From Pseudomonadota bacterium (GTDB lineage: Bacteria > Bdellovibrionota_G > JALEGL01 > DATDPG01): 64,000 nt of DNA. The translations under genes were made by a program, and so were the position numbers. The stretch lies in assembly GCA_043809315.1 (NCBI GenBank), contig JAZDDX010000017.1:98075-162074 (forward strand), read 5' to 3'. Within the stretch, counting starts at the first letter, position 1. The number at the start of each line of letters is the position of its first letter. The notes beneath the pieces are model-generated. The model was not told the origin of the DNA, did not search any database, and saw only the letters and a program-made list of their open reading frames with translations. Positions 11,681 to 42,811 of the stretch are shown here, piece after piece.

Positions 11681-11692
11681 TCGAAAAACTCC

Positions 11693-12490
11693 TTGAGCCG
11701 TATTCTTCTGATCGGTGACGTGTTCGGCAGGCCGGGCCGTCGGGCTGTGTTTGAAACTCTTCCGGGGTTGATCCGGGAGGAGAAGCTCGATTTTGTGATC
11801 GTGAACGGGGAGAACGCGGCGGGGGGAAAGGGGCTCACCGGCGAGATCTGCGGGCAGTTTTTCGACAGTGGTTGCGACGTCATCACGACCGGAAACCACG
11901 CCCGCGACAAGAAAGAGATCGATCCGTTTTTCGAGTCGGAACCGAGGCTTCTTCGTCCCTCGAACTACCCCGCTTCCGTTCCGGGCACTGGCGCGTTCGT
12001 CGGGACCGGTCGGAACGGAAAGACGATCGCGGTCCTGAACCTGATGGGGATCGTTCATATGGCGGAGCGGATCGATTCACCGTTCCAGACCGTGAAAGAG
12101 CGGATGGAGGAACTTCGCGCCCGAACGCCGGTCGTCATCGTCGACTTCCACGCCGAGGCGACGTCGGAAAAGCGGGCGATGGGGTGGTTCCTGGACGGGA
12201 CCATTTCCGCGCTTCTGGGGACCCACACGCACGTGCCGACGGCGGACGAACAGATTTTGCCTGCGGGAACCGCCTATATCACCGATGTCGGGATGACCGG
12301 GCCCTACGAGTCGGTCATTGGCCTGCGCACCGATCTCGCGCTCGAACGGTTCGTACAGGGAAAAAGAGGGGCATTCGACGTCGGGAAAAAGGATGTGAGG
12401 TTTTGCGGTGTGATCGTCGACGTCGACGACGAGACCGGAAAAGCGCGATCGGTCACGCGGTTCCGGCGGGACTTACTTTTCGCGGTTTAG
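11693..12490 (+). CDS. ymdB: YmdB/TIGR00282-family metallophosphoesterase
   Basis: IGDVFGRPGR, NGENAAGG, TGNH, DFHAEATSEK, GTHTHV, TDVGMTG. Confidence 0.93.
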   Translation: MSRILLIGDVFGRPGRRAVFETLPGLIREEKLDFVIVNGENAAGGKGLTGEICGQFFDSGCDVITTGNHARDKKEIDPFFESEPRLLRPSNYPASVPGTGAFVGTGRNGKTIAVLNLMGIVHMAERIDSPFQTVKERMEELRARTPVVIVDFHAEATSEKRAMGWFLDGTISALLGTHTHVPTADEQILPAGTAYITDVGMTGPYESVIGLRTDLALERFVQGKRGAFDVGKKDVRFCGVIVDVDDETGKARSVTRFRRDLLFAV

Positions 12491-12892
12491 TCTTTTCGAG
12501 ACCGACTCCAGGATCTTGCTTTCGAGAGAGAGATCGCTCGGGATCGTTTTCCAGGCGTCCGCCTGTTCGATCTCCAGTTGCTTGTAGAGCTTCACCACCG
12601 TCGATTGCCCGTCGTATAGGACGGTCCCGGAGAGTCGGTAGCGCGAGCGCTGGAACGGCTGGTAATCCTTCACCATCTCGCTTGCGAAATACCCCCGCTT
12701 CTTTTCGATCACTTCGATCGGGATCATGAAGTCGATTTGCACCGTTTGCGTAACCGCCTTCCAGACCGTGGAGAACGGCTTCGAGTAGGTCCGCATGCTG
12801 GCCGGCACCAGACCGCTCTGCGTCTCCGGGCCGCTTTTCACGCAGGCCGTCGCGAGAAGAAGAACGGGTACGATCCAAGTACGAAACTTCAT
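12473..12892 (-). CDS. Hypothetical lipoprotein
   Basis: MKFRTWIVPVLLLATAC lipobox; last gene of the gatCAB-mtnA-ilvE run. Confidence 0.75.
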   Translation of the reverse strand: MKFRTWIVPVLLLATACVKSGPETQSGLVPASMRTYSKPFSTVWKAVTQTVQIDFMIPIEVIEKKRGYFASEMVKDYQPFQRSRYRLSGTVLYDGQSTVVKLYKQLEIEQADAWKTIPSDLSLESKILESVSKRLNREK

Positions 12893-12894
12893 GG

Positions 12895-13815
12895 TCAACG
12901 AAGGTAGGTGAGCCATTCCTTGTATTTGGCCACGCGGCCGTGGACAATTTCGATGTATTGCTTGGCCATGTTGACCGTGACCGGTCCCGGCTTTCCGGTG
13001 CCGACCGGACGTGCATCGACCTCGCGGACCGGCGTGATCTCGGCGGCCGTTCCGGTCAGGAAGATCTCGTCGGCGTTGTACACGTCGTCGCGGATCAACT
13101 GTTCTTCACGGAACGGAATCCCGTCCTCCTTCAGAAGCTTCATGACCACGTCGCGCGTGAAGCCGGGGAGGATCGATCCGAGGCGCGGCGTGTAGACGAT
13201 GCCGTCCTTCACCAGGAACAGGTTCTCGCCGGTCCCTTCCGCCACGAACCCCTCGGTGTCGAGGAGAAGGGCCTCGTCGCAGCCATTGACCTTCGCATCC
13301 CGCTTGGCGAGAACGGAGTTGGCGTACTGGCCGCAAACCTTCGCCTTCGTGGCGGAGATGTTCCGGTGCAGCCGCGTGTAGCTCGAAATCATCGTCTTGA
13401 TCCCGTTCTTGAACCCTTCGTCGCCGAGATATTTTCCCCATCCCCAGGTGATGACGCCTACTCGGACCGGGTTGTCGAATGCCCAGACCCCGGCTCCCGG
13501 CCCCTCCGAAATAAACGCGATCGGGCGGAGGTACCCTTCCTTGAGCTGGTTCGCTTTCGCCGTCTCGACACAGGCTTCGCAGAGCTTGTTGAGATCGTAC
13601 GGGACGTTCATTGCCACCGACTTGGCGGACTCCAGGAACCGCTTCATATGGTCGCGCAGACGGAAAACGGCGCTTCCTTCGCTTCCGCAATCGTAATAGC
13701 GGATCCCCTCGAATACCCCGACGCCGTAATGAAGCGTGTGCGTGAGGATGTGCACGTTCGCCTGTTCCCAGGGGATCAGTTTCCCGTCCAACCAGATCTT
13801 TTCCGTTTTCTGCAT
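12895..13815 (-). CDS. ilvE: Branched-chain amino acid aminotransferase
   Basis: LHYGVGVFEGIR, AKVCGQYANS, EGTGENLF, GTAAEITPV. Confidence 0.96.
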   Translation of the reverse strand: MQKTEKIWLDGKLIPWEQANVHILTHTLHYGVGVFEGIRYYDCGSEGSAVFRLRDHMKRFLESAKSVAMNVPYDLNKLCEACVETAKANQLKEGYLRPIAFISEGPGAGVWAFDNPVRVGVITWGWGKYLGDEGFKNGIKTMISSYTRLHRNISATKAKVCGQYANSVLAKRDAKVNGCDEALLLDTEGFVAEGTGENLFLVKDGIVYTPRLGSILPGFTRDVVMKLLKEDGIPFREEQLIRDDVYNADEIFLTGTAAEITPVREVDARPVGTGKPGPVTVNMAKQYIEIVHGRVAKYKEWLTYLR

Positions 13816-13862
13816 AAGCTCTCCTCAAACGTGAAGGTAAACCGTCTGTCCGGTTCTTCAAC

Positions 13863-14906
13863 TCATTTTGATTTCGACGCTAGCTTTCGCAATGATTCCG
13901 AATAGGGGGGGCGTGCGATTCCCGCCTCTGTAACGATCGCAGAAACGTATCGTGCCGACGTCACGTCGAACGCCGGATGACGGGCGATCGTCCCGGCCGG
14001 GGCAACCGGTTTTCCTGCGAATTCAGTAACTTCCCTGGGGTCGCGTTCCTCAATCGGGATCTTGTCGCCGGAGGGGCAGGCGAGATCGAGCGTCGAGAGT
14101 GGGGCCACCGCGTAGAACGGGATCCCATTCTCCTTTGCAAGAACGGCGAGGGAATAGGTTCCGATCTTGTTTGCGACGTCGCCGTTCGCCGCGATCCGGT
14201 CGGAGCCGGTGATGACGGCGTCAACCTCTCCTCGGGAAATGAAATGTCCGGCCATGTTGTCGGTGATCAGGGTGTGTGGGATCCCTTCTTTCGAAAGCTC
14301 CCAGGCGGTCAATCGGGATCCCTGCAGGAAGGGACGCGTTTCATCGACCCAAACCGAGATCTTTTTCCCGGCGGCGACGGCGGAGCGGATCACGCCAAGG
14401 GCCGTTCCCCACCCAGCGGTCGCGAGCCCCCCCGCGTTGCAGTGGGTGAGGATTCGCGCCGGGGAGGGGAGTAACGACGCGCCGAACTCCCCCATCCGCT
14501 TGCAGGCGGCGATGTCTTCCTCGCGGATCGCGAGCGCTTCGTTCAAAAGTTGGGTCGCCCACGCTTCCGTCGTTGCAAACGGGCGTTTCGCCAGTTTCTT
14601 CATCCGGTCGATTGCCCAGAAGAGGTTGACCGCTGTCGGCCGGGTCGCCGCGAAGAGCGACGCCCACCGATCGAACGATTCGAGCGCCTTCGGAAGCGGA
14701 AGAGCTCGGTCCATTTTCGCCGCCAGAGCAAGCCCGAGAGCGGCGGTGACGCCGATCGCCGGGGCTCCGCGGACGACCATCGTCCGGATCGCGTCGGCGA
14801 CCTTCGAGGGGTCGTCGTACGAATGGTAGATCTCCTCGGCCGGAAGACGGAGCTGGTCGAGAAGCACTACGCGACTGTCGGTCCAGGTGACGGTTTCAAA
14901 CCCCAC
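13863..14906 (-). CDS. mtnA: S-methyl-5-thioribose-1-phosphate isomerase
   Basis: LLDQLRLP, MVVRGAPAIG, THCNAGGLAT, DETRPFLQG, ANKIGTY. Confidence 0.96.
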   Translation of the reverse strand: MGFETVTWTDSRVVLLDQLRLPAEEIYHSYDDPSKVADAIRTMVVRGAPAIGVTAALGLALAAKMDRALPLPKALESFDRWASLFAATRPTAVNLFWAIDRMKKLAKRPFATTEAWATQLLNEALAIREEDIAACKRMGEFGASLLPSPARILTHCNAGGLATAGWGTALGVIRSAVAAGKKISVWVDETRPFLQGSRLTAWELSKEGIPHTLITDNMAGHFISRGEVDAVITGSDRIAANGDVANKIGTYSLAVLAKENGIPFYAVAPLSTLDLACPSGDKIPIEERDPREVTEFAGKPVAPAGTIARHPAFDVTSARYVSAIVTEAGIARPPYSESLRKLASKSK

Positions 14907-16419
14907 GGCTCAACTCCTCTTTCAGTAGTTGGTTTAGGACGGCCGGATTTGCTTTCCCTTGTGTCGCCTTCATGACTTGTCCGACAAAGAAGCCGAACAT
15001 CTTTTCTTTTCCTGCTCGATATTGCGCGAGCTGGTCGGTATTCGTCGCCAGCACCTTCTGGATTGTTTTGCGGATCGAGTCGGTGTCGGAGATCTGAGTC
15101 AATCCTTTCACTTTCACAATCTCTTGAGCGGCCTTACCCGACTCCGCCATCTCGTCCAGGACATCCTTCGCTATTTTTCCGCTGATCGTTCCTGCGTCGA
15201 TCATCTTTAAGAGGGCGCTGAGATTTTCGGGACGGATCTTCAGTTGTTCGATTGATTCCGTTCGTTCTTTAACGAGACGAAGGATCTCCCCCATGACGTA
15301 GTTGCTGACCGTCTTCGCTTTCTCCGGATTCCCCGGCGCATAAGCGGTGAGCGTCGCCTCAAAATAGTCAGCGACCTCTTTCTCCGCGGTCAGAACGTCG
15401 GCATCGTAGGACGGTAAGGCAAAATCCTTCTCGAATCGTGCGCGACGTTCATTGGGCAATTCAACCCTTCCGGCTGTACGAGCATCTATCGAAGCGGAGA
15501 CCGTCACAGCGTCGGTCAGACTTTGTTCGAGTGGCCTACCCCTCTCATGGAGCCATTTCTCGGGCACGTTTAGGGGCAAGAGATCCGGCTCGGGGAAATA
15601 CCGGTAGTCGTGCGTTTCTTCTTTCGATCGCATCGAGGTGGTGATCCCCTGATCCGGATTCCACAGCCGCGTTTCCTGATGAATCTTCTTACCCGCTTGA
15701 AGTGCCTTTGTCTGGCGGTCGACTTCGTATTCAAGTGCTTTCCGAACGTGCTTGAACGAATTCAGATTCTTGATCTCGACCTTCGTGCCGAACTCCTTCA
15801 CACCCACGGGGCGGAGCGATACGTTCGCATCGCATCGCAAGCTTCCTTCCTCCATGTTCCCGTCGCAGACTTCAATGTACTTCAGTACCTGACGGAGTTC
15901 TTTCAGATAGTCTGAAGCCTCAGCGGGGGAGCGGAGGTCAGGGGCACCGACGATTTCGATCAGGGGAACGCCGCACCGATTGAGGTCCACCAGGCTCCCC
16001 TCCTTCGTCTGGAGGTTGTCGCCGTGGAGGAGTTTCCCCGCATCCTCCTCGAGATGAACGCGGATGATTTTGATCGTTCGAGAACCGTCATCTCCCTTGA
16101 TTTCAATTCTCCCGTTGACCGCAAGGGGCTGGTCAAACTGCGAGATCTGATAGCCTTTCGGAAGGTCCGGATAGAAATAGTTTTTCCGTGCAAATACCGA
16201 GTGCCTATTTATCGTACAATTCAGACTGTTGGCCGCCCACACGGCGAACCGGATGGCCATGGAGTTGACCACCGGAAGGGCACCGGGGAGCCCCAGGCAG
16301 ACGGGGCAGGTGAGCGTGTTCGGTTCGCGACCGAAGAGGTTCTCGCAACGGCAGAACATCTTCGTCTTCGTCTTGAGCTGTGCGTGGACTTCGAGTCCGA
16401 TGATCGTCTCGAAGCTCAC
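14896..16419 (-). CDS. gatB: Asp/Glu-tRNA amidotransferase subunit B
   Basis: IGLEVHAQL, RKNYFYPDLPKGYQISQ, DYRYFPEPDL, C-terminal YqeY-like GQVMKAT. Confidence 0.98.
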   Translation of the reverse strand: MSFETIIGLEVHAQLKTKTKMFCRCENLFGREPNTLTCPVCLGLPGALPVVNSMAIRFAVWAANSLNCTINRHSVFARKNYFYPDLPKGYQISQFDQPLAVNGRIEIKGDDGSRTIKIIRVHLEEDAGKLLHGDNLQTKEGSLVDLNRCGVPLIEIVGAPDLRSPAEASDYLKELRQVLKYIEVCDGNMEEGSLRCDANVSLRPVGVKEFGTKVEIKNLNSFKHVRKALEYEVDRQTKALQAGKKIHQETRLWNPDQGITTSMRSKEETHDYRYFPEPDLLPLNVPEKWLHERGRPLEQSLTDAVTVSASIDARTAGRVELPNERRARFEKDFALPSYDADVLTAEKEVADYFEATLTAYAPGNPEKAKTVSNYVMGEILRLVKERTESIEQLKIRPENLSALLKMIDAGTISGKIAKDVLDEMAESGKAAQEIVKVKGLTQISDTDSIRKTIQKVLATNTDQLAQYRAGKEKMFGFFVGQVMKATQGKANPAVLNQLLKEELSRGV

Positions 16420-31801: not shown

Positions 31802-32339
31802 GAGAATAGTAAGGACCCTGGCGGAAGATCGAGCGGGTCACCTCTGGCTGAAAGTCAGGGGGGAGGGAAGGGCCTGTCGGGTTGTGACGGTGATGGACGC
31901 GTGCGCGCTCCTGGGTCGGAGTCGTCGGCAGATCTACCGGTATCTCGAGTCGAGACAGCTGGAACCCAAGGGAAGGCTGGGTCAGGAACTTCTGGTCGAT
32001 GCCGATTCGCTCTCCCGGATCGCCGCCGGGGCGCGCTCGAATCGGCCTCTTCCGGCGGGGTTTCAAAGTCATTTTCCTGAATATCGCGTGCGGGATCTTC
32101 ACCCGTCCCGGGACCGTACGGTCGTCCTGTCGAGACTGCTCGAGCACGGGACGTACGAGGACCTTCGGTGGATGTGCCGCCGCTACTCTCGGGCGACGCT
32201 TCGTGCCTTCGTGAAGGGAGAAGGCGCACGGCTTCTCTCGAAGCGAAGCGCGAACTTCTGGGGTGTGATCTTCGGGGTGAAGTCCGCAGCTCCCTCCGGA
32301 CGTGATCTTGGTCTCGACCCGTGGAGGAAGAGGATATGA
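31800..32339 (+). CDS. HTH plus DUF6922-like putative antitoxin
   Basis: HTH VMDACALLGRSRRQIYRY; C-terminal F-x-EY...VLSRLLEHG...LRW...Y pattern; ATGA-coupled to the next gene. Confidence 0.7.
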   Translation: MRIVRTLAEDRAGHLWLKVRGEGRACRVVTVMDACALLGRSRRQIYRYLESRQLEPKGRLGQELLVDADSLSRIAAGARSNRPLPAGFQSHFPEYRVRDLHPSRDRTVVLSRLLEHGTYEDLRWMCRRYSRATLRAFVKGEGARLLSKRSANFWGVIFGVKSAAPSGRDLGLDPWRKRI

Positions 32340-32974
32340 AATTCTTCGAAGAGGTGGTCGATCGGGCAACGATCGAAGCGGCGAAGAGTCTGGGGGCGGC
32401 TCTGGGGGAGCGATTCTATCTGGCCGGAGGGACTGCGATCGCGCTGCAGCTGCGACACCGGATCTCTCTGGATCTGGATCTCTTTTCCGGGACGAACGAA
32501 CTGCGCGACCGGGACCGGGATTCGATCTTACGCGCTCTTCGCCCGGCGGGTGGTTTGGAGGTGGTGGAGAATAGCGAAGGAACGCTGAACCTGCGGATCG
32601 ATGGCGCGGCCGTGAGCCTCTTCCATTACCCCTATCCGCTCGTGCACGTGGTGGCCGGCAAGTGGCAAGGGCTTCCGGTGGCCGATCTTCGGGACATCGG
32701 AGCGATGAAGTTGAGCGCGGTGGTCGGGCGGGGGTCGAAAAAAGATTTTATCGATCTCTTCTTCTTGGCGAAAAAACTGGGGCTTCGGGCGTCGTTGGAA
32801 ACCGCGGAGGGGAGATTCCGTGATCATCCCGGGTTTACGATTGCGGCCCTGAAGGCCCTAGTCTATTTCGAGGACGCCGAAAAAGAGTCGATGCCGCGGA
32901 TGAGGAAGCCGGCCGACTGGGAAGAGATGAAGCGGTTTTTCCGGCGGGAGGTCCGCGCACTCTTTAGGCCGTAG
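32336..32974 (+). CDS. AbiEii/AbiGii-family nucleotidyltransferase toxin
   Basis: FYLAGGTAIALQLRHRISLDLDLF, DIGAMKL, RGSKKDFIDL, KALVYFEDAE. Confidence 0.9.
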   Translation: MKFFEEVVDRATIEAAKSLGAALGERFYLAGGTAIALQLRHRISLDLDLFSGTNELRDRDRDSILRALRPAGGLEVVENSEGTLNLRIDGAAVSLFHYPYPLVHVVAGKWQGLPVADLRDIGAMKLSAVVGRGSKKDFIDLFFLAKKLGLRASLETAEGRFRDHPGFTIAALKALVYFEDAEKESMPRMRKPADWEEMKRFFRREVRALFRP

Positions 32975-32978: not shown

Positions 32979-33069
32979 TGGTGCCGGGAGCCGGACTCGA
33001 ACCGGCATGACCCCGTAAAGGGTCTCGGGATTTTAAGTCCCGTGCGTCTACCAATTTCGCCACCCCGGC
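32979..33069 (-). tRNA. tRNA-Leu(TAA)
   Basis: GCCGGGG acceptor stem, CGGGA-CTTAAAA-TCCCG anticodon arm, long variable arm, GGTTCGAGTCC T arm, encoded CCA. Confidence 0.97.
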
Positions 33070-33117
33070 ACGCTTGAAATTATTGAACTATTTTACTTTC
33101 CTCCAAACTACAAGTTC
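33029..33117. repeat. att site, left copy (5' half of tRNA-Leu plus upstream region)
   Basis: 41 bp identical to 39681-39721, then 48 bp with 4 mismatches. Confidence 0.95.
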
Positions 33118-33122
33118 CGTCT

Positions 33123-33142
33123 GTGTCCGTTTTGGTGTCCAC
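33123..33142. repeat. Putative integrase arm-binding site, left
   Basis: GTGTCCGTTTTGGTGTCCAC, identical to 39532-39551; contains two GTGTCC units. Confidence 0.75.
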
Positions 33143-33148
33143 TTTTTG

Positions 33149-33964
33149 TCAGAAACGAGCCGTCCTATCCCCTATGCTTGTGGTCAACCGAACCAGGCGA
33201 CGGCCCCACACACATGGTCGTTTTAGCCCGAAGAAGAGATACCAGAACACAAAGTAGTTAGATCCGATCAGGAGTATCAGAAACTCCCTCCAATTTGGAA
33301 GGCGTTGGATTTGTTCGCCGAACTGAGACGTGCCAGACGAATAGGTTCGAATTGCCAGGTTCTCAAAGTTCTTTGGATACTGAAACTCGATCCCACTTTT
33401 ATCACTGTATCGAATCCTATCCACGTACGACCAAACTTTGGGATTGGGGGGCCACTCTCCTGGTCGTCTGAATGTTCCGTACATACTGACCCGAAACCAA
33501 TCGAGCAGCCATTCGCGAACCCAAACGAGGCCAAGGCTCCTTATAATCTGAAGGGATCTTCCTCGTTCCATGAGGCTTTCTAGGTCTTCTACTGCCTTCT
33601 TCTTTCTCTCTTCCTCAGCCGATACCACTTCTGGTTCCTTGCCTTTAGTTCGTGCACCTCGGGCCGAGCCTACAATCTGGATGTCTTCCGTTGCATCATC
33701 ATAATCTGGACTTCTTCTGAGGAGGCTCCTTACAGGAAAACAGAGAATGGCGAGCACGAAGACCGTCGTAAACAGGATCAAGTACCAGAAATCGCGATCA
33801 TCGCTCCATCGAAGTAGGAGCCTCTTAAGCCACAAGGGTACGAACCACCGAATCCGAAGCGTCCGGAAAATTGTTGGGACATCTTTCGCGACAGTGAAAT
33901 ACCCGAAGAAGATTGCAAACAGTTCCCAGGGGGGCCACGTAACTGATTTCCTGCTTTTGGGCAT
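33149..33964 (-). CDS. Hypothetical membrane protein (element cargo)
   Basis: 271 aa with about three hydrophobic helices; AT-rich; directly downstream of the integrase. Confidence 0.65.
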   Translation of the reverse strand: MPKSRKSVTWPPWELFAIFFGYFTVAKDVPTIFRTLRIRWFVPLWLKRLLLRWSDDRDFWYLILFTTVFVLAILCFPVRSLLRRSPDYDDATEDIQIVGSARGARTKGKEPEVVSAEEERKKKAVEDLESLMERGRSLQIIRSLGLVWVREWLLDWFRVSMYGTFRRPGEWPPNPKVWSYVDRIRYSDKSGIEFQYPKNFENLAIRTYSSGTSQFGEQIQRLPNWREFLILLIGSNYFVFWYLFFGLKRPCVWGRRLVRLTTSIGDRTARF

Positions 33965-33990
33965 TTAGCGTCTCCCCAATCGCCTAGCGT

Positions 33991-35049
33991 TTAGTGTTTC
34001 GAGTTTGCGATTTCAGCAGGGACCGTACTCTGTTGCGGTCGCACATCAACCGTTTTCAGAAAGTCCCGCAAATCGCCTTCTGTGAGGTTTGTGTATCGAT
34101 CAAAGACCTTCCGCGTCTTGTGGCCGGAAATTGCCATTATCGCCTTTTCTGGGATCCCCCGCTTAACCCAGCGGGTTACTGCCATGTGCCGGAGGTCATG
34201 AAAGTGGAAGTTTTCGATCTGCGCTCGGTCACAAGCACGCAAGAACCCCTCTCGAATCGAACGAATACGATGCCCGTTCCGATGGAACACGTAAGGGCAG
34301 TGGAGAAGGCGGATCTTCGCAGAGATAATCTGCGAGAGGCGGGAGTTGATCGGGATTGTGCGGCGAGTTCGTGTCTTGGTGTCGTCAGCGGTGAGCCGAA
34401 TAAACCCCTGCTTCAAGTCCACTCTGTCCCAAGTCAGGTTGAGAATTTCACCTAGCCGCATCGCCGTTTCGTAGCCAACCTCAATAATGGTACGGGTGAG
34501 GGGAGGTGCCGAGTCTAGGAGGTGGCCATACTCCTCTTCAGTCAGAATCCTCTCGCGTTGCAGATGATCCTCGTTGAACAAACGCACGGAGTGAATCGGG
34601 TTTCTTTCCAGTTTCCCGTCTCGGACGAGTCGGCCGAACATCGCCTTGAGGCAAGCCAACTCTCGGTTGATCGTGCTGACGGCAACGGGTGTTCCCATCC
34701 TGGTGGTTTGGTTCCGCCGTGCCTCTTTATATCGTTCGATCTCGGAAGGGAGGATGTCGCGGACCTTTCGTTGCCCGAAATGCCGAACGAGGCGTCGGCA
34801 GATGTTGATGTCGCTTGCATGAGAACGCTTTCGAGCAGTGTTTTGAAGGTAGTCCTTCGCCATTTCATCCAAGGTAAGATTCGACAGAATCTTCTTGTCG
34901 AATATCCGGTTCTCCTTGATCTCGACCTTTCTCTTGGCAAGCGCCTTCTCTGCTTCTCGCTTCGTGGTCGGACCCAGGCTTTCCCGGAATCGCCGACCGT
35001 TGACGCGATAATCAAGCATCCAATTCCTATTCTTTCTGAAAACGCCCAT
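33991..35049 (-). CDS. int: Tyrosine recombinase / phage integrase
   Basis: N-terminal arm-binding domain, STINRELACL, TAMRLGEI (R), KT (K), HFHDLRH (HxxR), ISGHKT (H), RY (Y). Confidence 0.97.
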   Translation of the reverse strand: MGVFRKNRNWMLDYRVNGRRFRESLGPTTKREAEKALAKRKVEIKENRIFDKKILSNLTLDEMAKDYLQNTARKRSHASDINICRRLVRHFGQRKVRDILPSEIERYKEARRNQTTRMGTPVAVSTINRELACLKAMFGRLVRDGKLERNPIHSVRLFNEDHLQRERILTEEEYGHLLDSAPPLTRTIIEVGYETAMRLGEILNLTWDRVDLKQGFIRLTADDTKTRTRRTIPINSRLSQIISAKIRLLHCPYVFHRNGHRIRSIREGFLRACDRAQIENFHFHDLRHMAVTRWVKRGIPEKAIMAISGHKTRKVFDRYTNLTEGDLRDFLKTVDVRPQQSTVPAEIANSKH

Positions 35050-35065
35050 AACGTACCTCCGACGG

Positions 35066-35758
35066 TTAGACTCCCGTTTTTTTCCGTCCTACCGAGTAAT
35101 TCTTCGCGTATAATCTATTTTGATACTTGTTATATGTCTCTCGGTTCTTCTCTCGCCAGGCATAGATGCGGTCCTTTTTCACTTTGGACTTGCACTCGTT
35201 CGAGCATCTCATGGCTCCTCTTCTGCTCTTGCTGACGAAGATTCGATTGCAGACATCGCATGTGTGAAGGAGTGCCATGGGGAAGTTGTTGAGGGCATCG
35301 GAAAAGAGTTTCTTTGCGCGAAATACCTTATCTTCGGTCGCTGTGATTTGATGCACCATGCCCTTCACTAGGTAGAACTCGGTGCTGATGGTTTCACGGG
35401 GGCGCGGTGGAAAGTCGGCAACTTCCCCAAGAAAAGACCAGCCAACAACATCCCTCGTGTAGTCCCTTGGTCCAGTGATCAGCCGCAGGACGCTGCGCAT
35501 CCAAGCCTGGAGTTCCCTAATCTCTTTAACGTTAAATGCATTTGGGCGTTGATCCCAGAGCATGTCTCCCGGCACCCGATGTAATAGGCCGTCGAATAAC
35601 CATGCTTTCGTGATCCTTTTGTTCTTCTCGAAGGGGATGCGCCCAGTGCCGCCTGACGGGCACTTGTCGTCCAATACCTCCTTCAGATGGTCTTCGGGGC
35701 AGTTGATGAACTGCGCATAGAACCGAATCCGGTCTTCCTTCGGTGTTGGCGCTTGCAT
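35066..35758 (-). CDS. Protein with C-terminal CGNR-like zinc finger
   Basis: CDVCNRIF...RCSNEC followed by a basic helix; co-oriented upstream of int. Confidence 0.7.
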   Translation of the reverse strand: MQAPTPKEDRIRFYAQFINCPEDHLKEVLDDKCPSGGTGRIPFEKNKRITKAWLFDGLLHRVPGDMLWDQRPNAFNVKEIRELQAWMRSVLRLITGPRDYTRDVVGWSFLGEVADFPPRPRETISTEFYLVKGMVHQITATEDKVFRAKKLFSDALNNFPMALLHTCDVCNRIFVSKSRRGAMRCSNECKSKVKKDRIYAWREKNRETYNKYQNRLYAKNYSVGRKKTGV

Positions 35759-35916
35759 TTATAGTTTCCTAAAGACGGCGAACTGGGGTGATGCCTGAAA
35801 CATCAAAAAGTGATGGAAGAACACGGAAGCGCCTTCAAAAAACCCTGAGGGGGTTGTATGGTCAAAATCGTAGTTGCACATAAATGATAACAACATACAA
35901 CTATGGAGGCGAATCG

Positions 35917-36114
35917 ATGTCAACAGAAAAGAGGGAACCTGAACCGTTGGTAGATATTGCCGCAGCGGCTAGGTTCCTGGCCGTGCGTGAGAATACGATT
36001 CGGATTTGGTGCTGCGAAGGGAAGCTTAAACCTTTAAGGGCCGGACGGCGTCTGCGCTTCCGTCTGAGCGACCTAGTAAGATGGGCGGAGGGCATAAGCG
36101 ATGTTCAATCCTGA
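35917..36114 (+). CDS. Excisionase-like HTH (MerR/HTH_17) protein
   Basis: GGAGG RBS; AAARFLAVRENTIRIW...GRRLRFRLSDL. Confidence 0.85.
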   Translation: MSTEKREPEPLVDIAAAARFLAVRENTIRIWCCEGKLKPLRAGRRLRFRLSDLVRWAEGISDVQS

Positions 36115-36292
36115 TGACAAGACGACCCCTTTCGATCTTGATTTCTCCGTTCGCGAACTAATCTCGCGGCGACTGAAGAAGCTCCAAGCCGTCTACGAAC
36201 TTCAAAAGCCCTCATTCATTCGGAGACATCTGCATCAACTTGAAGTTCTGACAGATATTTTGTTTGGCTCGGACGATCGAACAGCCGATTAA
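36101..36292 (+). CDS. Small hypothetical protein
   Basis: 63 aa; overlaps both neighbours. Confidence 0.55.
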   Translation: MFNPDDKTTPFDLDFSVRELISRRLKKLQAVYELQKPSFIRRHLHQLEVLTDILFGSDDRTAD

Positions 36293-36738
36293 TGTCCGAG
36301 GCGTTCTTTATGATTCCCCGTCAATGGTACGAGGACGGCTCCCTGTTTTCGGGAAGCGGGGCCAGGGTCCTCCTGGCGCTGGCGAAAAGAGCGAACCACG
36401 GTGCTCCCAAATCCTACCGGGGAAGCTGGATCAATAAGGGGGAGCTGGTAGTGGGAACAAAGGAGTTGGCTCGGGAAGTTCAAGTTCCGCGATCGACCGT
36501 GTACCGGCACTTGAAGCGGTACGAAAGAGACGGGAAATTGAGACTGAAGGCGGGACGCGACAAAACGCTGGTTTCCATCGTTGATTTCGCCACTTACAGA
36601 GACGCACCAGCAAGAAATGGCACACCGATTGAGACTCAAGGTGAGACACCACCCGAGACATCGGCCGGGAACAAACAAGAGAGAAAGAACAATAAGATGG
36701 TCGCAGCTTCGGAGATTTCGGTGTGGCCACGACTTTAA
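36292..36738 (+). CDS. Phage-type replication initiator-like winged-HTH protein
   Basis: LAKRANH, INKGELV...ELAREVQVPRSTVYRHLKRY...TLVSIVDF; internal 12-bp periodic repeats. Confidence 0.65.
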   Translation: MSEAFFMIPRQWYEDGSLFSGSGARVLLALAKRANHGAPKSYRGSWINKGELVVGTKELAREVQVPRSTVYRHLKRYERDGKLRLKAGRDKTLVSIVDFATYRDAPARNGTPIETQGETPPETSAGNKQERKNNKMVAASEISVWPRL

Positions 36739-37700
36739 TTCCGAAAACCATCACAGCGAAGGAGGTAGACCGATGGCAACCACCATACGAAAGGAGTCCG
36801 ATTGCTGTCGGGGACATCTCCAATTCGGTCGTCCACATCCGCGAACTGTTCGACCACGTGATCAATGCACGGACAGCTAATCCTGAGACGACCTACGGAC
36901 ATCCAACCCAATGCTGGCCTGTGTTCGCGCGAGCATTTGGAGGACTTCGGCCTGGTGAACTGACAGTCGTGACGGCTGAAACGGGTGCGGGCAAGACCAC
37001 GTTCGCTCTGAATTGGGCGGCTGACTATGCCCGACCTGGTACGAACGGAGTGTTCTATGTCTCCTTGGAAATGTCGAAACAGGCAACTGCCGAAAAACTC
37101 GCTCAGCTTATCCACCGGAAGCCTGTCCGGGAGTTCGACCAAGGGACCAACTTCACTGATTTGAGGGCGGTTAGGGAGGTGTTCGACCGCCTAAACTTTT
37201 GGTTCTTTGATCATTACGGCCGAGTTAAAACAGATCGCCTATTCAAAGCGATTTGGTACGCAGTCTGTGAGAAGAAAACGCGGCTGGTTGTGATCGACCA
37301 CCTCGCCTATCTCGTCCACCAGGACAGGGCCGAAAATCAGACCATTGCAGTCGAAAACACGATGCGGGACCTGGCACTGGTCGCGAATCAAACAGGTTCA
37401 ACAATTCTTCTCGTCGTTCATCCGAGAAAAGGGACGCCTGATGAAAAACGACGACCTCTTGAGCTAGATGACCTGAAGGGATCTTCGGCAATCTCTCAGG
37501 AGGCTTCCAACGTCCTTTCGCTGTTTCGGCCGGACCGCACTAAATCCGAAACGTATCTGTTCTTCTTAAAGATTCGGTCCCACCACTTCGCTCATTCATT
37601 GGGCGGGGGAATCCGGTTCAACTTCAATCCCAGAAGCCTTTGGCTGGAAGAAGAGTCGAAGGAGATCGAGTTTCGGGGAGGTCGAAATCATGGGGTTTAA
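36723..37700 (+). CDS. SF4 (DnaB/T7 gp4/Twinkle-like) helicase without primase domain
   Basis: GLRPGELTVV, Walker A AETGAGKT, SLEM, VIDHL, VVHPRK, DLKGSSAISQEA. Confidence 0.88.
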   Translation: MATTLIPKTITAKEVDRWQPPYERSPIAVGDISNSVVHIRELFDHVINARTANPETTYGHPTQCWPVFARAFGGLRPGELTVVTAETGAGKTTFALNWAADYARPGTNGVFYVSLEMSKQATAEKLAQLIHRKPVREFDQGTNFTDLRAVREVFDRLNFWFFDHYGRVKTDRLFKAIWYAVCEKKTRLVVIDHLAYLVHQDRAENQTIAVENTMRDLALVANQTGSTILLVVHPRKGTPDEKRRPLELDDLKGSSAISQEASNVLSLFRPDRTKSETYLFFLKIRSHHFAHSLGGGIRFNFNPRSLWLEEESKEIEFRGGRNHGV

Positions 37701-38019
37701 GAGCCCGGAGACTCGCCGAGCCTACCACCGTGAGTACAAGCGACTTCACAGGGGTGGGGTTTGTCAAACCCCCGGTCAAACCCAGGTCCCGACGGAATTT
37801 CGGATAAAAACGGCAAAAGACATTCTCGATTTATTGGCAGAACAGATCGAGGTAATTCGAGGAGATTCGACGATCAGCTCAACCGAACGCGCGCGTACGA
37901 TCGGCTACCTCGCGGGAATTTCATTGAGGGCAGTGGAGGCAGCAGACCTAGCGGTAAGAGTAGAGGCCATTGAAGCAGTGTTCAAGAATAGAAAGGCTTT
38001 TACAGATGAAGCTAAGTAA
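37690..38019 (+). CDS. Hypothetical helical protein
   Basis: GGAGG RBS; 109 aa; C-terminal coiled coil DLAVRVEAIE. Confidence 0.7.
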   Translation: MGFKSPETRRAYHREYKRLHRGGVCQTPGQTQVPTEFRIKTAKDILDLLAEQIEVIRGDSTISSTERARTIGYLAGISLRAVEAADLAVRVEAIEAVFKNRKAFTDEAK

Positions 38020-38536
38020 CGATTGCTACCAGGAACTCGACGCCAAGGAACGGTGGCGACTAGCCTTGGCTGCCAGAACACGCAATGACCTGCGCGAATA
38101 TCGCCGCCTTCAAGATACGTGTCCTTATTGTCAGGTTGTAAAAGAAGATCCCGAGTTTACCTGGCTCATGGGGCGGAGTCGCGACATCGGTGCCGTTTTC
38201 ACGATCTATTGGCTTAGGATTGCGCTTTGGAAAGCAGAACTGTGCTGGTGCCTCGCGGAAATCGAGCAGATCGAATCATCGGATAACCAACTGAGAAAAC
38301 GTGCGGCTGATCGCTTGGATTCGGTGATTTCAAAGGAAAAAGGACTTCACGAGGGGCTAGAAAAGTTCTGTCAAGCCATAGGAATCCAAGCAAATGCCCT
38401 TCTTTGTATCTACCCTGATGTGGCGGAAGGTTACGCTGAGACGACTAGCCGGATACCCCCCGAAGTCATTGCGGACCCAACGGCGGTAAACACAGTCTAC
38501 GACCAGTTCATGGAAATCTGGAAAGGTCTGCCTTGA
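38006..38536 (+). CDS. Hypothetical protein
   Basis: Overlaps the previous gene; helical, 176 aa. Confidence 0.65.
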   Translation: MKLSNDCYQELDAKERWRLALAARTRNDLREYRRLQDTCPYCQVVKEDPEFTWLMGRSRDIGAVFTIYWLRIALWKAELCWCLAEIEQIESSDNQLRKRAADRLDSVISKEKGLHEGLEKFCQAIGIQANALLCIYPDVAEGYAETTSRIPPEVIADPTAVNTVYDQFMEIWKGLP

Positions 38537-38574
38537 ATACGACCCCGGCTGATTAACCGGGCGCTAAGCCAAAT

Positions 38575-38799
38575 CTACTTTGCCTCGAAATCGAGCAGCT
38601 TACCCAGGGGTACGCCAATGGTTTGGGCGATCTTTGCCAACGTGACAATTTGTGGATTTACTAGGCCGTTTTCGATTTTCGATAGTGTCCCGCGCGAAAA
38701 TCCGGCCTCCAAATAGACGCGATCTTGGCTATAACCCCTTGACTTGCGAACCTTTGCGATATGTTTCCCCAGACGCGCAAGAAATGTCGTCGTGTTCAC
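38575..38799 (-). CDS. XRE-family HTH regulator
   Basis: LGKHIAKVRKSRGYSQ...TLSKIENGLVNP...TLAKIA. Start could extend to 38820. Confidence 0.88.
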   Translation of the reverse strand: MNTTTFLARLGKHIAKVRKSRGYSQDRVYLEAGFSRGTLSKIENGLVNPQIVTLAKIAQTIGVPLGKLLDFEAK

Positions 38800-38893
38800 T
38801 ACATGATTCTGAGACGGCAAACATTCGACTCTCTTCCTATAGGAAGGTAAAAAGAAGGAAGGTCTTGAGAATAGCAGATACTCGGGGGTTCAG

Positions 38894-39277
38894 ATGACAA
38901 GAACGAAGATCATTTTTGCGTTCATGGCGCTTTCGCTCCTCGCCGGATGTGGCGCCACCATCGTTTCGACAAAGCGAAACCTCTCCAACGATCCAAATGC
39001 CCCCGTGGCCTCAGGTCCTGATGGAGGCGAGATCAAGTTCTTGAACGAGGGACTAAGGGAATCGGTTGCGCAGGAGCAGCGGCAAGACGCCTACCGCCAA
39101 ATGAAGGATTATTGTCATGGACCGTACAAGATCGTCTCCGAAGAAACCAAATGGGAGCCGTATTCAGTGTCGGCCTGGGTTAACCCGACTCCTGCGCATG
39201 TCGTACACGTCAAATTTGAGTGCCTACCGGAAGGAGTCACAACCACCGATGGAAAGACGTCCAATCCTAAGGAGTAG
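38894..39277 (+). CDS. Hypothetical lipoprotein
   Basis: Lipobox LAGC; internal Cys pair (YCHG...FEC). Confidence 0.75.
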   Translation: MTRTKIIFAFMALSLLAGCGATIVSTKRNLSNDPNAPVASGPDGGEIKFLNEGLRESVAQEQRQDAYRQMKDYCHGPYKIVSEETKWEPYSVSAWVNPTPAHVVHVKFECLPEGVTTTDGKTSNPKE

Positions 39278-39482
39278 GAACCTAGTTGTCGCGCTGTTCT
39301 TTCTGATGGGGTGCGGAAGCGACGATAAAACCCCCGCTTGCGATGCAGCTTGCCAAGAGAGCCTTTGCCGGGATGGGTACTCAATATGTTACGACGGGTG
39401 TCAAATCGGTGGAGTAGATTTCTCGTGCCTGGCGGCGTGTGACAAAAAATGGTGTGCGTGCAGTGCAAAAGGTTGTTCATGA
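39249..39482 (+). CDS. Small cysteine-rich lipoprotein (77 aa)
   Basis: MERRPILRSRNLVVALFFLMGC followed by 10 more Cys in about 55 residues. Confidence 0.65.
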   Translation: MERRPILRSRNLVVALFFLMGCGSDDKTPACDAACQESLCRDGYSICYDGCQIGGVDFSCLAACDKKWCACSAKGCS

Positions 39483-39531
39483 AAAAAACAAAACGAAGGA
39501 CCCCAAGGCGATCTTCTTCCCCTCCCTGGAA

Positions 39532-39551
39532 GTGTCCGTTTTGGTGTCCAC
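39532..39551. repeat. Putative integrase arm-binding site, right
   Basis: Exact copy of 33123-33142. Confidence 0.75.
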
Positions 39552-39680
39552 ATTCGGCAGATTTCAGCGAATTTCGATGAAGAATGGCGAACGGTGGTTT
39601 AGGGAGGAAGTCGAGGCTAGAAAAGGCGTTTAGAGGGATTCGGGTCGACCTTCGCGGGGTTACAAAAACGCGGTCGGGTC

Positions 39681-39769
39681 GATTTTAAGTCCCGTGCGTC
39701 TACCAATTTCGCCACCCCGGCGCACTTGAAATTATTGAACTATTTTACTTTCTTCCAAACCACAAGTTC
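39681..39769. repeat. att site, right copy (displaced 5' fragment of tRNA-Leu plus upstream region)
   Basis: Matches 33029-33117; the tRNA fragment stops just after the anticodon loop. Confidence 0.95.
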
Positions 39770-39885
39770 TGACCACTGCGAGAACGTCCAAGAAGCGCAA
39801 TTGCCTCCATAAAGGCGCTCTGCAATTATTTCAGAGCCTGACCCCGTAAACACGCTCTAACTATTGAATATCGTTACCTACTTGC

Positions 39886-39902
39886 CGGTATGAACCGTGC
39901 AT
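39886..39902 (+). promoter_or_regulatory. Putative sigma-54 promoter
   Basis: CGGTATGAACCGTGCAT (GG-N10-GC) with an AT-rich, IHF-like tract upstream. Confidence 0.4.
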
Positions 39903-39919
39903 AATCATAAAGAATCATC

Positions 39920-42811
39920 ATGAGGAAGAGGATTTGGGTTCTGGTTCTTCTCCTGGCCGGCTGTTCCAGCGGGATGGGAGATGCTGCCAAAACCGATGTT
40001 GGCAACGGCGACGGCACTGCCGTCCCTACCGTCGACGTCACCAATGGGGTTCTTCCTCTTTCTTCACTCTGCGGGAACGGCGTCGTCGATTCGGGGGAGA
40101 AATGCGATCCGTTGTTCGGATGCCCTCACGAATGTCCCCAGACCGATTCCTGCCGGAAACCGAAACTCGTCGGGGACCCTTGGCGTTGCAGCGCGGAGTG
40201 TGCGTACGACGCCATCACCGCATGCGCGAATGACGACGGATGTTGCGCGGCAGGGTGCACCAGGGAGAACGACAACGACTGTTTCAAATACTACGTCGAC
40301 GCGAACGGCGGGTCCGATTCGAACAACGGACTCGCGCCCGACAAGGCCTGGAAGACGATCGCCAAGGTGAACGGTTCTTCGCTGGTTGCCGGGGATTCGG
40401 TCGGATTCAAACGAGGTGAGACCTGGCGGGAAACGCTCGTCATTCCGTCCTCCGGAGCCACGGGGAACCGGATCGTCTTCGGAGCGTACGGGAACGGGGA
40501 GAAGCCGCTGATCAACCCGACGACCCGAGTCCAGAGCTGGAGGGTATCGAGTGGAAACGTCTGGGAGGCCGATGTCAGCTCTCCGATGCGGCAGCTCCTG
40601 TTCGACGGCGAACTCCTTCCACTCGCCCATGATCCAAACGGTGATTTTCATACGATCGACGTCGACAGCCCGATCGGGACTTCCCTTGTGGACGCCGGCA
40701 TCGCATCCCATGCGGCGGAACTGACCGACGCCACCGTCTGCATCCGGACGGTCGATTGGGAGATCGAGGAACGAAAGGTCACGTCGTTCGACGCCGGAAC
40801 GAATACGCTCAATTTCGACACCGCCGTCCGGTACGCGGTCAACGCCGGTCGTGGCTATTACCTTGAAAACCGGAGGTGGATGCTCGACTCGGCCGGGGAG
40901 TGGTTCTTCGATGCCGGGGCGGGGCGTCTCTACCTCTGGCCCCCCGGGAACGTGAATCCGAACGAACACACAGTCGAGGTCTCCCCGCTCAACACGACCA
41001 GCGCGGTCGCGAAGGAGGAGGTCGGGATCTACGGCGTCAATCGACGATACATCACCGTAAGCGATCTCGCCGTGCGCAGCGCCGCCCGAATTGGCGCTTA
41101 TTTTCAAGACGCCGGTTTCCTCCGCTTAGCCCACCTCGACATCCGATCGATCGGAGGGAACGCAGTCCCCGATCCGGGCTATCTCTGGGGACGAGGGATC
41201 TACGTCAATCGGACGCCGTCGACGGCCGCTGAACCGAGCACGATCGAAGGGAACGTGATCGAAAACACCGTACGCGAAGGGATCTACATCGACGGCTCCC
41301 CGTCCGTCCAAATTCTTCACAATACCGTCCGGAATCCGGGGGCCGTCGGCCTTCCGAGACGAAGTTCCGCCGGAATCGTCGCGGGGAGCGGATCGACCGG
41401 CGCCTTGGTCGAGGGGAACGAGGTCACGAACGCCGGCCTGATGGGGATCGGGTTCTCGGCGGCCAACATCGTGATCCGCCGGAACGTCGTCAACCGCGCC
41501 TGCTCCGTCCTGATGGACTGCGGCGGGATCTACACATGGAATGGCATCGAGACGGACCTGGGCCGTTCGGGGGGCACCATCGAACGAAACGTCGTCATGA
41601 ACTCGATCGGGAACCCAACCGGTACGGGGAGAACCACGTATGGCGCCCACGGCATCTACTTCGACAACCGGAGCAACGGGCTCACGGTTCGGGAGAACGC
41701 GTCGATCCGGAACCGCCGAGCCGGGATCTATTTCAGCAACAACTTCGACGACACGATCTTGAAAAACAACTTGTACGGCAACGACGTGGCCGGGATGAGG
41801 TTCGGCGAACATGGGTGGGACGGAATGGCCGATTTCGGTCCCGGCTTTGTGCACGGGAACAACGCCAGCGGAAACGTCCTCTTTTCGACATCGGCCGAAA
41901 GTTTGGGCCTTCAGGTCGAGAGCGATTTCGATCCTCCTCATGTCGCGGAGTTCGCTGGGAACGCGTACGTCCAGCCGTACAATCGGGTGCGTGCGGTCTC
42001 CACCATCCGAAGCTCCCCATGGCTGGAGCAGTTCTTCATGTTGTCGGGATGGCAATCGTTGACCGGAAACGACCCGACCGGGTGGACGACGGACGCTTTT
42101 TACGAAGTCGTCCCGTTTGTGGCTCGAACGATCGCCGGACCGGAGATCATTGCAAACGGCACTTTCAATGCGGACGTTTCAAGCTGGCGTACCTGGCCGG
42201 CGGATCTTCCGCACGAATGGGTTTCCGACTGCGGGCTGAACGGGGGGTGCTACAAGGGGACCAAGCGCGCGGATACCGGGTCGGTACAGGAGCTCGGATA
42301 CGCCGGTCCGTTCGGCGTCACGAAAGACCGGACGTATCTTCTCCGCTTCAGCGCTCGCGCGAGCAAATACGAGCGGGTTCGCGTGAACCTCATGATGCAC
42401 GAATCTCCGTGGAGCACCCTCTGGACCGACACGTTGGCGATCGGCCCGTTCCGATCGGAGCACGCGTTTATCGTCAAAAGCGCGCAGACCCTGCAAGCGC
42501 GACTTCAATTTCAGAGCGGTCCGACCACGGGGGTCGATTACTATTTCGACAACGTGACGCTCAAAGAGGCCTCGGACATCACCTACAACGAGACCTGGGA
42601 TGACAGCCGGATTCTCTTCAACGCCTCGAGCGTCGAACGGACGTTGCCGTTGGGTGAACCGTATTGCGATCTCCAGGGAAACGTCGTCAGCGGAAGCGTC
42701 CCTCTCGGCGCGTTCGAATCGCAAGTACTTCTCTCCTGTTTCTGCAACCGGGACGGGGGCTGCAACAACCGCGAAACCAAGGACACGTGTCCTTCCGATT
42801 GCGGCGGTTGA
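39920..42811 (+). CDS. Large lipoprotein: Cys-rich repeats, right-handed beta-helix (pectate-lyase-like) and CBM4/9-like module
   Basis: Lipobox LAGC; CGNGVVDSGEKCD; YYVDANGGSDSNNG...AWKTI; GIY...IxxN repeats; IANGTFN...YFDNV. Confidence 0.85.
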   Translation: MRKRIWVLVLLLAGCSSGMGDAAKTDVGNGDGTAVPTVDVTNGVLPLSSLCGNGVVDSGEKCDPLFGCPHECPQTDSCRKPKLVGDPWRCSAECAYDAITACANDDGCCAAGCTRENDNDCFKYYVDANGGSDSNNGLAPDKAWKTIAKVNGSSLVAGDSVGFKRGETWRETLVIPSSGATGNRIVFGAYGNGEKPLINPTTRVQSWRVSSGNVWEADVSSPMRQLLFDGELLPLAHDPNGDFHTIDVDSPIGTSLVDAGIASHAAELTDATVCIRTVDWEIEERKVTSFDAGTNTLNFDTAVRYAVNAGRGYYLENRRWMLDSAGEWFFDAGAGRLYLWPPGNVNPNEHTVEVSPLNTTSAVAKEEVGIYGVNRRYITVSDLAVRSAARIGAYFQDAGFLRLAHLDIRSIGGNAVPDPGYLWGRGIYVNRTPSTAAEPSTIEGNVIENTVREGIYIDGSPSVQILHNTVRNPGAVGLPRRSSAGIVAGSGSTGALVEGNEVTNAGLMGIGFSAANIVIRRNVVNRACSVLMDCGGIYTWNGIETDLGRSGGTIERNVVMNSIGNPTGTGRTTYGAHGIYFDNRSNGLTVRENASIRNRRAGIYFSNNFDDTILKNNLYGNDVAGMRFGEHGWDGMADFGPGFVHGNNASGNVLFSTSAESLGLQVESDFDPPHVAEFAGNAYVQPYNRVRAVSTIRSSPWLEQFFMLSGWQSLTGNDPTGWTTDAFYEVVPFVARTIAGPEIIANGTFNADVSSWRTWPADLPHEWVSDCGLNGGCYKGTKRADTGSVQELGYAGPFGVTKDRTYLLRFSARASKYERVRVNLMMHESPWSTLWTDTLAIGPFRSEHAFIVKSAQTLQARLQFQSGPTTGVDYYFDNVTLKEASDITYNETWDDSRILFNASSVERTLPLGEPYCDLQGNVVSGSVPLGAFESQVLLSCFCNRDGGCNNRETKDTCPSDCGG

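Follow-up and report, generated by a model that had tools for sequence, protein, structure and literature searches.

Here we describe a small integrated element in a 64,000-nt stretch of DNA (hereafter the window) from a Pseudomonadota bacterium, namely positions 98,075 to 162,074 of contig JAZDDX010000017.1 in assembly GCA_043809315.1. The host assembly is a 96%-complete metagenome-assembled genome (MAG) of 2.42 Mb in 44 contigs, and the host phylum comprises 17 species-level genomes, on which all within-phylum counts are based. The element is the low-GC block at 33029-39769; it is 6.65 kb long and sharply bounded. The evidence supports its being a discrete accessory unit with its own replication genes and not a deletion remnant, since its attachment (att) repeats are precise, its open reading frames (ORFs) are intact and a six-gene operon within it is tightly overlapping. 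The best explanation as a whole, to which we give a probability of roughly 0.45, is an integrative, self-replicating mini-element that is packaged by a helper phage. That the element is an integrative replicon is highly probable, and a phage-satellite lifestyle is proposed tentatively.

The GC content is 0.49-0.55 in the element compared to 0.58-0.65 in the flanks, and the drop spans about 33000 to 40000. A repeat search revealed an 89-nt direct repeat at the two edges, attL and attR (Table 1), with 85 of 89 positions identical and the copies 6652 nt apart. The repeat starts 2 nt beyond the 7-nt anticodon loop (TTTTAAG on the plus strand) of a tRNA-Leu(UAA) gene and runs to the tRNA 5' end and on into the sequence upstream. 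The tRNA portion is identical at 41/41 positions, all 4 mismatches falling in the upstream 48 nt. In attR, a promoter scan detected TTGGAA-16-AATAAT on the minus strand (39758..39731), at the right spacing from the tRNA 5' end at 39721; the corresponding -35 in attL is TTGGAG. The duplicated block is the tRNA 5' half plus promoter, and the element sits upstream of the tRNA. The target is the sole tRNA-Leu(taa) gene among the 45 tRNAs that ARAGORN detected in the assembly and, being single-copy, its function must be kept. It scores as a normal tRNA with Rfam, and an Rfam scan of the element returned this tRNA only.

From this arrangement we infer a crossover inside the anticodon loop and a hybrid live tRNA that is transcribed from sequence carried by the element. 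Two points lead there: the dyad-symmetric anticodon stem-loop marks the end of the identity block, and a 5' half with its promoter would be needed on the element only if the exchange took place at that end. In the usual form of tRNA integration the 3' part is found on the element and the original promoter continues to serve the tRNA; in the anticodon-loop class, identity begins at the symmetric anticodon stem-loop (Williams 2002, as relayed in passages of PMC8371274). The same passages describe the 5'-half arrangement as seldom met in bacteria (PMC8371274). The repeat begins at the anticodon stem-loop both in the element and in a sibling at tRNA-Trp, as in the anticodon-loop class, but in the element it holds the 5' half and 48 nt of promoter sequence, not the 3' part. 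Between the two repeats lie copies of the 20-mer GTGTCCGTTTTGGTGTCCAC, which occurs exactly twice in the 64-kb window, whereas two or more matches were found in 0 of 100 shuffles. The two copies would flank the att core on both sides in an excised circle and are likely arm-type sites for the N-terminal domain of the integrase.

The sibling element lies in the same genome at the single-copy tRNA-Trp(CCA) gene. It is split over two contigs, C3 and C15, and is at least 6.5 kb long. The order on C3 is tRNA-Trp(CCA), int, helicase, winged helix-turn-helix (wHTH) gene and HTH_17 xis, up to the contig end. Compared with their counterparts in the window, the integrase is 33%, the excisionase 34% and the wHTH protein 38.5% identical, and the helicase is 84% identical. 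A diverged initiator beside a near-identical helicase fits two compatible replicons that share a helicase type. The sibling is bounded by a 48-nt repeat of the tRNA-Trp 3' part, from 3 nt before the anticodon to 2 nt past the tRNA end, with the second copy at C15 3222-3269. It follows the ordinary 3'-half arrangement, unlike the tRNA-Leu element. The genome thus has two homologous integrases which apparently act at the anticodon loops of different single-copy tRNAs, in opposite polarity. On the low-GC remainder (C15:1-3221) lie genes for two paralogous lipoproteins, a secreted protein and an XRE regulator, along with ORFs of 179 and 196 aa. The similarity of the 196-aa product to DUF5681 (E 0.002; 19.1 bits, where the cut-off is 27.5) is a weak lead at most. 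Structural genes are likewise lacking in the sibling.

All 12 ORFs of the low-GC block in the window were scanned with Pfam, PHROGs, NCBIfam and PADLOC. An earlier reading of this DNA from its letters alone (the original prediction) had placed the element at 33991..38536 and had listed its core genes. Each of these genes was recovered at or near its predicted place in the ORF list and the profile libraries, and the interval does contain the core, but it covers the core only and the element extends to the two att repeats. The prediction that no capsid, portal, tail, relaxase or type IV secretion system (T4SS) gene is present also holds, as none was matched in 12/12 ORFs with the four libraries, and a terminase family was not matched there either. 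No ORF is a pseudogene or shows a frame break, and in the six genes from xis to o188 neighbours overlap by 1-16 nt, the signature of a single, intact, translationally coupled operon. With the precise att repeats and the sibling, these observations agree with the earlier claim of own replication genes on a discrete element, and the alternative of a deletion remnant, which the original prediction had named, does not stand against exact att sites, intact ORFs and an overlapping operon.

The genes divide into two divergent arms. Leftward lie int and zn230. The integrase translation shows the R (AMRLGE), HxxR (HDLRH) and Y (DRYTN) motifs and an N-terminal arm-binding-type region. The 230-aa ORFan zn230 is transcribed away from the xis operon, in the position expected of a satellite master regulator. 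Its matches are confined to the C-terminal region (phrog_3794 and HNH-endonuclease PHROGs, 1e-3 to 5e-5); a phmmer search of 1.84 billion representatives at E<=0.001 returned 4 proteins, namely itself and 3 weak partial C-terminal matches, and an AlphaFold2 (AF2) single-sequence model was unusable (pLDDT 37.6). Rightward, the excisionase gene xis likely starts at ATG 35917, with GGAGG 8 nt before; its product matches TIGR01764 at 2.7e-5, which is below the cut-off of that model. The wHTH protein matches the 'DnaD-like helicase loader' phrog_2514 (1.8e-10) and the 'replication initiation protein' phrog_270 (7e-4). It is followed by a superfamily 4 (SF4) helicase that aligns to the helicase half only (positions 320-602 of 801) of the primase/helicase phrog_239 (2e-52), and no DnaB-N or primase domain was matched with Pfam or PHROGs. 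Its Walker A motif is GAGKT, and D192/H193 are invariant in alignment A1.

The helicase family is rare. A homologue search returned 43 proteins at E<=0.001, 23 of which, the window's own included, are stand-alone helicases of ~300 aa with 34-84% identity. These 23 make up alignment A1, from which a 191-aa fragment and weaker or longer matches were left out. Closer homologues (P0003-P0006) are 50-69% identical. Within the phylum the helicase is present in 1/17 genomes, the host genome, and there twice. In IMG/VR it has relatives at 25-36% identity only, mostly on ~40-kb phage contigs; we considered these as kin of the element and rejected them as ordinary phage helicases. Genome and metagenome scans with the helicase alignment gave distant relatives with 22-40% identity among the matches listed. 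The original prediction had proposed a search for the same gene order in metagenomes. We compared 96 helicase-related loci, mostly IMG/VR viral contigs with a few genome or metagenome loci among the matches listed. Of these, 78 share the helicase only, 16 also share int and 2 show an xis match. The genes for wHTH, o109, o188 and zn230 were found in 0/96.

The two genes after the helicase, o109 and o188, lead to a different set of relatives. The o109 family has 33 homologues with 53-66% identity; alignment A2 combines the window's protein with 31 of them and omits two short fragments. An AF2 model from this 32-row alignment (pLDDT 78) predicts a basic helix at the N-terminus and, after it, a long helical hairpin. 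The product of o188 was alone among 5.8 billion clustered proteins. It has a single distant homologue, in genome G016 of the same phylum, which lies directly after an o109 homologue and is similar over its full length (20% identity, E 6e-11). The ESM Atlas model of o188 is poor (pLDDT 0.54), with coiled-coil look-alikes only (TM<=0.5). One PLSDB record and 2/17 phylum genomes carry the o109 family, and 3/3 o109 loci with readable DNA are int-bearing elements of 6.6-9.7 kb without capsid, portal or large terminase subunit (TerL) genes. The replicase differs at each of these three loci.

The PLSDB record is 'plasmid unnamed2' of Thermaerobacter sp. FW80 (NZ_CP037897.1), which comes from a cultured host and was deposited as a circle of 8456 nt. 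Its ends overlap exactly over 1570 nt, so that the real unit is 6886 nt. The circle encodes an integrase, a MerR regulator, an HTH protein, a PrimPol-D5 primase-helicase, a 259-aa ORF and a 136-aa protein resembling a terminase small subunit (TerS). The N-terminal part of the latter matches the 'terminase small subunit' phrog_6299 (1.2e-14), and a tailed virus of Methanobrevibacter smithii has a putative small terminase to which the same part is 32.5% identical. Directly after this TerS-like gene comes the o109 homologue (54%), followed by a 99-aa ORF. Rfam detected no tRNA fragment on the circle, and a long hairpin is present at 2810-2891. At the DNA level, 37714-37794 in the o109 gene and 461-541 of the circle are 80% identical over 81 nt, although the hosts are phylum-level distant.

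The G016 island, of ~9.7 kb, lies at the 3' end of the tmRNA gene and is bounded by a 21-nt repeat (20/21). It carries int, a 222-aa ORF, AlpA (PF05930, 1e-21), a DnaG-Zn-ribbon/Toprim/DUF3987 primase-helicase and an o109 homologue (52%). The 181-aa o188 homologue overlaps the end of the o109 homologue and aligns end to end with o188. Genes for an SNase-type nuclease, an HTH protein, Hypoth_Ymh and a ClpP-like SDH protease lie downstream, and the 15-mer CCCCATAGTTGCCCC is repeated just inside both ends of the island. Judged by its sequence context, the o109-o188 pair is a conserved module after the replicase, in elements that carry three unrelated replicases. We consider o109 and o188 the best candidates for a helper-interaction or packaging function; the pointers to a packaging role are circumstantial and consist of the synteny and the TerS-like neighbour in the Thermaerobacter circle.

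Table 1. Features of the element and of two related islands. Coordinates are window positions unless a contig is named.
Feature	Coordinates	Strand	Basis
tRNA-Leu(UAA), integration target	32979-33069	-	ARAGORN; Rfam tRNA 58.9 bits
attL, 89-nt repeat: 41 nt of tRNA 5' half and 48 nt upstream with promoter-like -10/-35	33029-33117		
20-mer GTGTCCGTTTTGGTGTCCAC, candidate arm-type Int site, P' side of attP	33123-33142	+	
mem271, 271-aa hydrophobic membrane ORF, candidate cargo; gene reality uncertain	33149-33964	-	ORF list
int, tyrosine integrase	33991-35049	-	PF00589 6e-24; PF24624; phrog_1 1.4e-66
zn230, 230-aa ORFan	35066-35758	-	C-terminal Zn ribbon (CxxC...CxxxC) and basic tail
Divergent intergenic control region zn230/xis	35759-35916	.	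sequence
xis, excisionase/AlpA-like HTH_17	35884-36114	+	PF12728 2.7e-11; phrog_66 1.2e-7
s63, 63-aa ORF, overlaps xis by 14 nt	36101-36292	+	no family in Pfam, PHROGs, NCBIfam
wHTH, candidate replication initiator/helicase loader	36292-36738	+	phrog_2514, phrog_270
SF4 helicase, stand-alone DnaB C-terminal domain, 325 aa	36723-37700	+	PF03796 (DnaB_C) 5e-22
o109, conserved ~104-aa family, three-helix	37690-38019	+	homologue search, model
o188, 176 aa from ATG 38006, helical ORFan, syntenic partner of o109	38006-38536	+	
XRE/Cro-CI type HTH regulator	38575-38820	-	PF01381 4.5e-13
Lipoprotein, 127 aa, signal peptide and lipobox LLAGC, cargo	38894-39277	+	translation; no family
Small Cys-rich lipoprotein, lipobox FLMGC	39249-39482 (within ORF 39117-39482)	+	translation
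20-mer GTGTCCGTTTTGGTGTCCAC, second copy, candidate arm-type Int site, P side	39532-39551	+	
attR, second 89-nt copy: displaced tRNA 5' half (39681-39721) and promoter-like sequence	39681-39769		
Sibling element at single-copy tRNA-Trp(CCA), two contigs, >=6.5 kb	C3:10794-14115 and C15:1-3269		
G016 island	C10:158500-178499, about 5371-15088 within that stretch		

In the explanation that we favour, Int and the HTH_17 Xis would recombine attP with the anticodon-loop region of tRNA-Leu(UAA). In the integrated state a hybrid tRNA would be made from element-borne sequence, and the host 5' half and promoter would be left stranded at attR. Once excised, the circle would depend for replication on its own wHTH initiator/loader and SF4 helicase, while primers would presumably come from the host, and control would be exerted from the divergent zn230/xis region and by the XRE protein. 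With no capsid, packaging-motor or conjugation gene, the element must hitch-hike, and it may spread by helper-phage packaging, the o109-o188 pair serving helper interaction or packaging. Helper packaging is favoured because minimal satellites without terS, sid, ppi and capsid genes are documented, as described in parts of the PICMI preprint and the VEIME paper, and because the o109-bearing relative in Thermaerobacter has a TerS-like gene.

Several results weigh against this explanation. Capsid, TerL and portal families (PF05065, PF03354, PF04860, PF03237) were not matched anywhere in the 96%-complete MAG, so that no resident helper is seen. The original prediction had singled out the products at 37690 and 38006 as candidate packaging or helper-interference factors to be compared with known ones. 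The o109 protein gave no Pfam, PHROG or PDB-sequence match, its model gave no Foldseek match at E<=0.001 in PDB or BFVD, and neither o109 nor o188 was matched to TerS, Ppi, Sid, Psu or any other family or fold. An o109 family profile detected nothing among the other proteins of both elements, the sibling's 196-aa protein included. Relatives of o109 are absent from 2.9 million IMG/VR contigs, where none of 140 pattern matches was confirmed, and likewise from 50,697 phage records; this absence is weak evidence, because marker-based catalogues tend to miss such elements. A search of the element for an origin (iterons, tandem repeats) gave nothing convincing. On two other contigs of the MAG, int has a neighbour of conjugation type, a TraG-D_C/TrwB-type coupling protein on C4 and a Replic_Relax protein on C24. 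Finally, vesicle or plasmid-like spread, as proposed for tycheposons, fits equally well.

This last point leads to a phage-free alternative, in which the element is integrative and plasmid-like, excises to form a small plasmid, moves by vesicles, transformation or lysis, and uses o109-o188 for maintenance or copy control. It is consistent with the deposition of the o109-sharing relative as a circular plasmid of a cultured Thermaerobacter, with the lack of packaging genes and the presence of lipoprotein and membrane cargo in the element, and with the tycheposon preprint, whose accessible parts describe tRNA-sited elements with int, xis and primase-helicase as enriched in vesicles. However, no partition, toxin-antitoxin or copy-control family was matched among the 12 ORFs with the four profile libraries, and the TerS-like gene beside o109 in the Thermaerobacter circle points to capsids, not vesicles. 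We regard this alternative as rather unlikely. Conjugative transfer is less probable still: the element would be mobilised in trans through an unrecognised oriT, without a relaxase of its own. The integrase genes beside conjugation-type proteins in the same MAG, accompanied on C4 by an xis-type gene, are in keeping with such a route. Yet no relaxase, coupling protein or T4SS gene was matched in the element with Pfam, PHROGs or NCBIfam, the genome has no match to PF03135 (VirB4), PF02534 or PF03432 (relaxase), and a DnaB-type helicase with an initiator is typical of phage or satellite replication modules. A decayed prophage or immobilised island that has kept int and replication genes is very improbable, for although the distant helicase relatives lie mostly in ~40-kb phage contigs, with int in 16/96 and xis in 2/96 loci, the att repeats are near-perfect and the tRNA is restored, the operon is compact and unbroken, two independent small elements of the same size share one genome, and the o109 relatives are likewise in 6.9-9.7-kb elements, with no closer relative in a full prophage.

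Returning to the satellite explanation, the element could possibly belong to an undescribed satellite family, a claim of the original prediction that stands in part. No described satellite family fits by the markers that can be tested, but capsid-less minimal satellites (PICMI, VEIMEs) have already been described, and for this reason the claim is put no higher than possible. A broader joint reading, which we consider unlikely, would make o109-o188 the hallmark of undescribed cross-phylum minimal satellites of ~6.5-10 kb. These would swap integrases and replicases (the SF4 helicase with wHTH, DnaG-DUF3987 and PrimPol-D5) and exploit helper packaging without a terS, sid or ppi homologue. The same reading includes an Int lineage that would use the anticodon loop either way, capturing the 3' half at Trp and the 5' half with promoter at Leu.

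The remaining genes in and around the element are candidate cargo and neighbours. The product of mem271 had no match in Pfam, PHROGs, NCBIfam or PADLOC, and the ESM Atlas gave no usable match and low recognition. The start of the Cys-rich lipoprotein at 39249 is a presumed internal ATG after AAGGAG at 39231. On the other side of the tRNA, an AbiEii-type toxin gene (PF08843, 3e-15; 32321-32974, plus strand) ends 5 nt from the tRNA-Leu 3' end, on the side where islands usually insert; its GC content is host-like, and an AbiEi-like partner is probably encoded just upstream, by an ORF ending at 32339. About 150 nt past attR lies a gene for a 963-aa right-handed beta-helix protein (PF13229, NosD-like) of secreted or lipoprotein type (39920-42811, plus strand), which before the insertion was divergent from the tRNA-Leu promoter region. 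Elsewhere in the MAG, contig C4 (9.5 kb, GC 0.54) carries int and genes for an HTH_17 protein, the TraG-D_C/TrwB-type coupling protein, DUF6088/AbiEi and HipBA, and C24:1-9000 carries an AbiEii gene in addition to int and the Replic_Relax gene.

Small elements that combine an integrase with a replicase and lack structural genes are increasingly recognised as abundant parasites of phages and as gene vectors, and few such families have been defined outside marine and clinical bacteria. The element is a cleanly bounded example from a poorly known phylum, its o109-o188 pair is a concrete candidate for the hijacking or packaging function of minimal satellites, and it would be a bacterial case of 5'-half and promoter replacement in an essential single-copy tRNA. 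If the integrase pair does act on the same symmetric core in opposite orientations, it would offer a tractable system for the evolution of att sites.

Among known systems, phage-inducible chromosomal islands (PICIs) and P4-like satellites share with the element an integrase at one end, divergent arms for regulator and for xis and replication, and the lack of structural genes. PICIs are defined by an integrase at one end with divergent regulator and xis/replication arms. The likeness to them that the original prediction had drawn was confirmed by the ORF list: int and zn230 run leftward, and xis, s63, wHTH, helicase, o109 and o188 rightward. PICIs also carry a primase/replication-initiator (pri-rep) module and are induced and packaged by a helper phage; the replication module of the element consists of an initiator-like wHTH protein and an SF4 helicase that has no primase domain. 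PICIs are roughly 10-15 kb, and the element, at 6.65 kb, is smaller. Their packaging and interference genes terS, ppi, cpm and rpp were matched in none of the 12 ORFs (Pfam, PHROGs). The SatelliteFinder core of P4-like satellites consists of psu, sid, delta, eps and the alpha primase, and none of these was recognised in the element with Pfam, PHROGs or NCBIfam. The G016 relative has an int-AlpA-primase layout, which is typical of Gram-negative PICIs.

The PICMI (phage-inducible chromosomal minimalist islands) of Vibrionaceae, as far as the available parts of the preprint describe them, are likewise small islands with int, an AlpA/Xis-type regulator, a replication gene and accessory cargo, and without terS, sid, ppi or capsid genes. 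In the same description they integrate at the 3' end of fis, have an int-alpA-prim core that uses a primase, and are packaged as concatemers by a virulent helper. In contrast, the element targets a tRNA 5' half, here of tRNA-Leu, and would rely on wHTH and an SF4 helicase with no primase. Marine VEIMEs (virion-encapsidated integrative mobile elements) are small and combine an integrase with replication genes, many ORFans and no major capsid gene, and some carry HNH-like or TerS-like genes (PNAS, in the parts available). They are defined by their occurrence as concatemers in virions. The tycheposons of Prochlorococcus and other marine bacteria share a tRNA-targeting tyrosine recombinase, an excisionase and a primase/helicase module that includes DnaB-type forms, and they occur in PICI-like or cargo-carrying forms (from the accessible portion of the preprint). 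Their attachment sites are described there as partial tRNAs. A recombinase clade of their own and a set of hallmark profiles define tycheposons, and the likeness to the element is one of architecture.

The closest parallel to the attachment site is found in archaea. The pTN3-like integrases use the tRNA 5' half and, in pTN3/TKV4-type elements, attB is this 5' half and the restored tRNA is expressed from element-borne sequence, according to the relevant passages of PMC8371274. These elements have 'suicidal' SSV-type integrases with att inside the int gene (same passages), whereas the element has an intact int and an intergenic att and brings a copy of the native tRNA promoter. Collectively, what appears to set the element apart from these systems is the replacement of a tRNA 5' half with its promoter beside a sibling that uses a 3' half, the pairing of a primase-less SF4 helicase with a separate putative wHTH initiator, and the candidate o109-o188 module, which recurs across replicase types, with o109 itself recurring across phyla.

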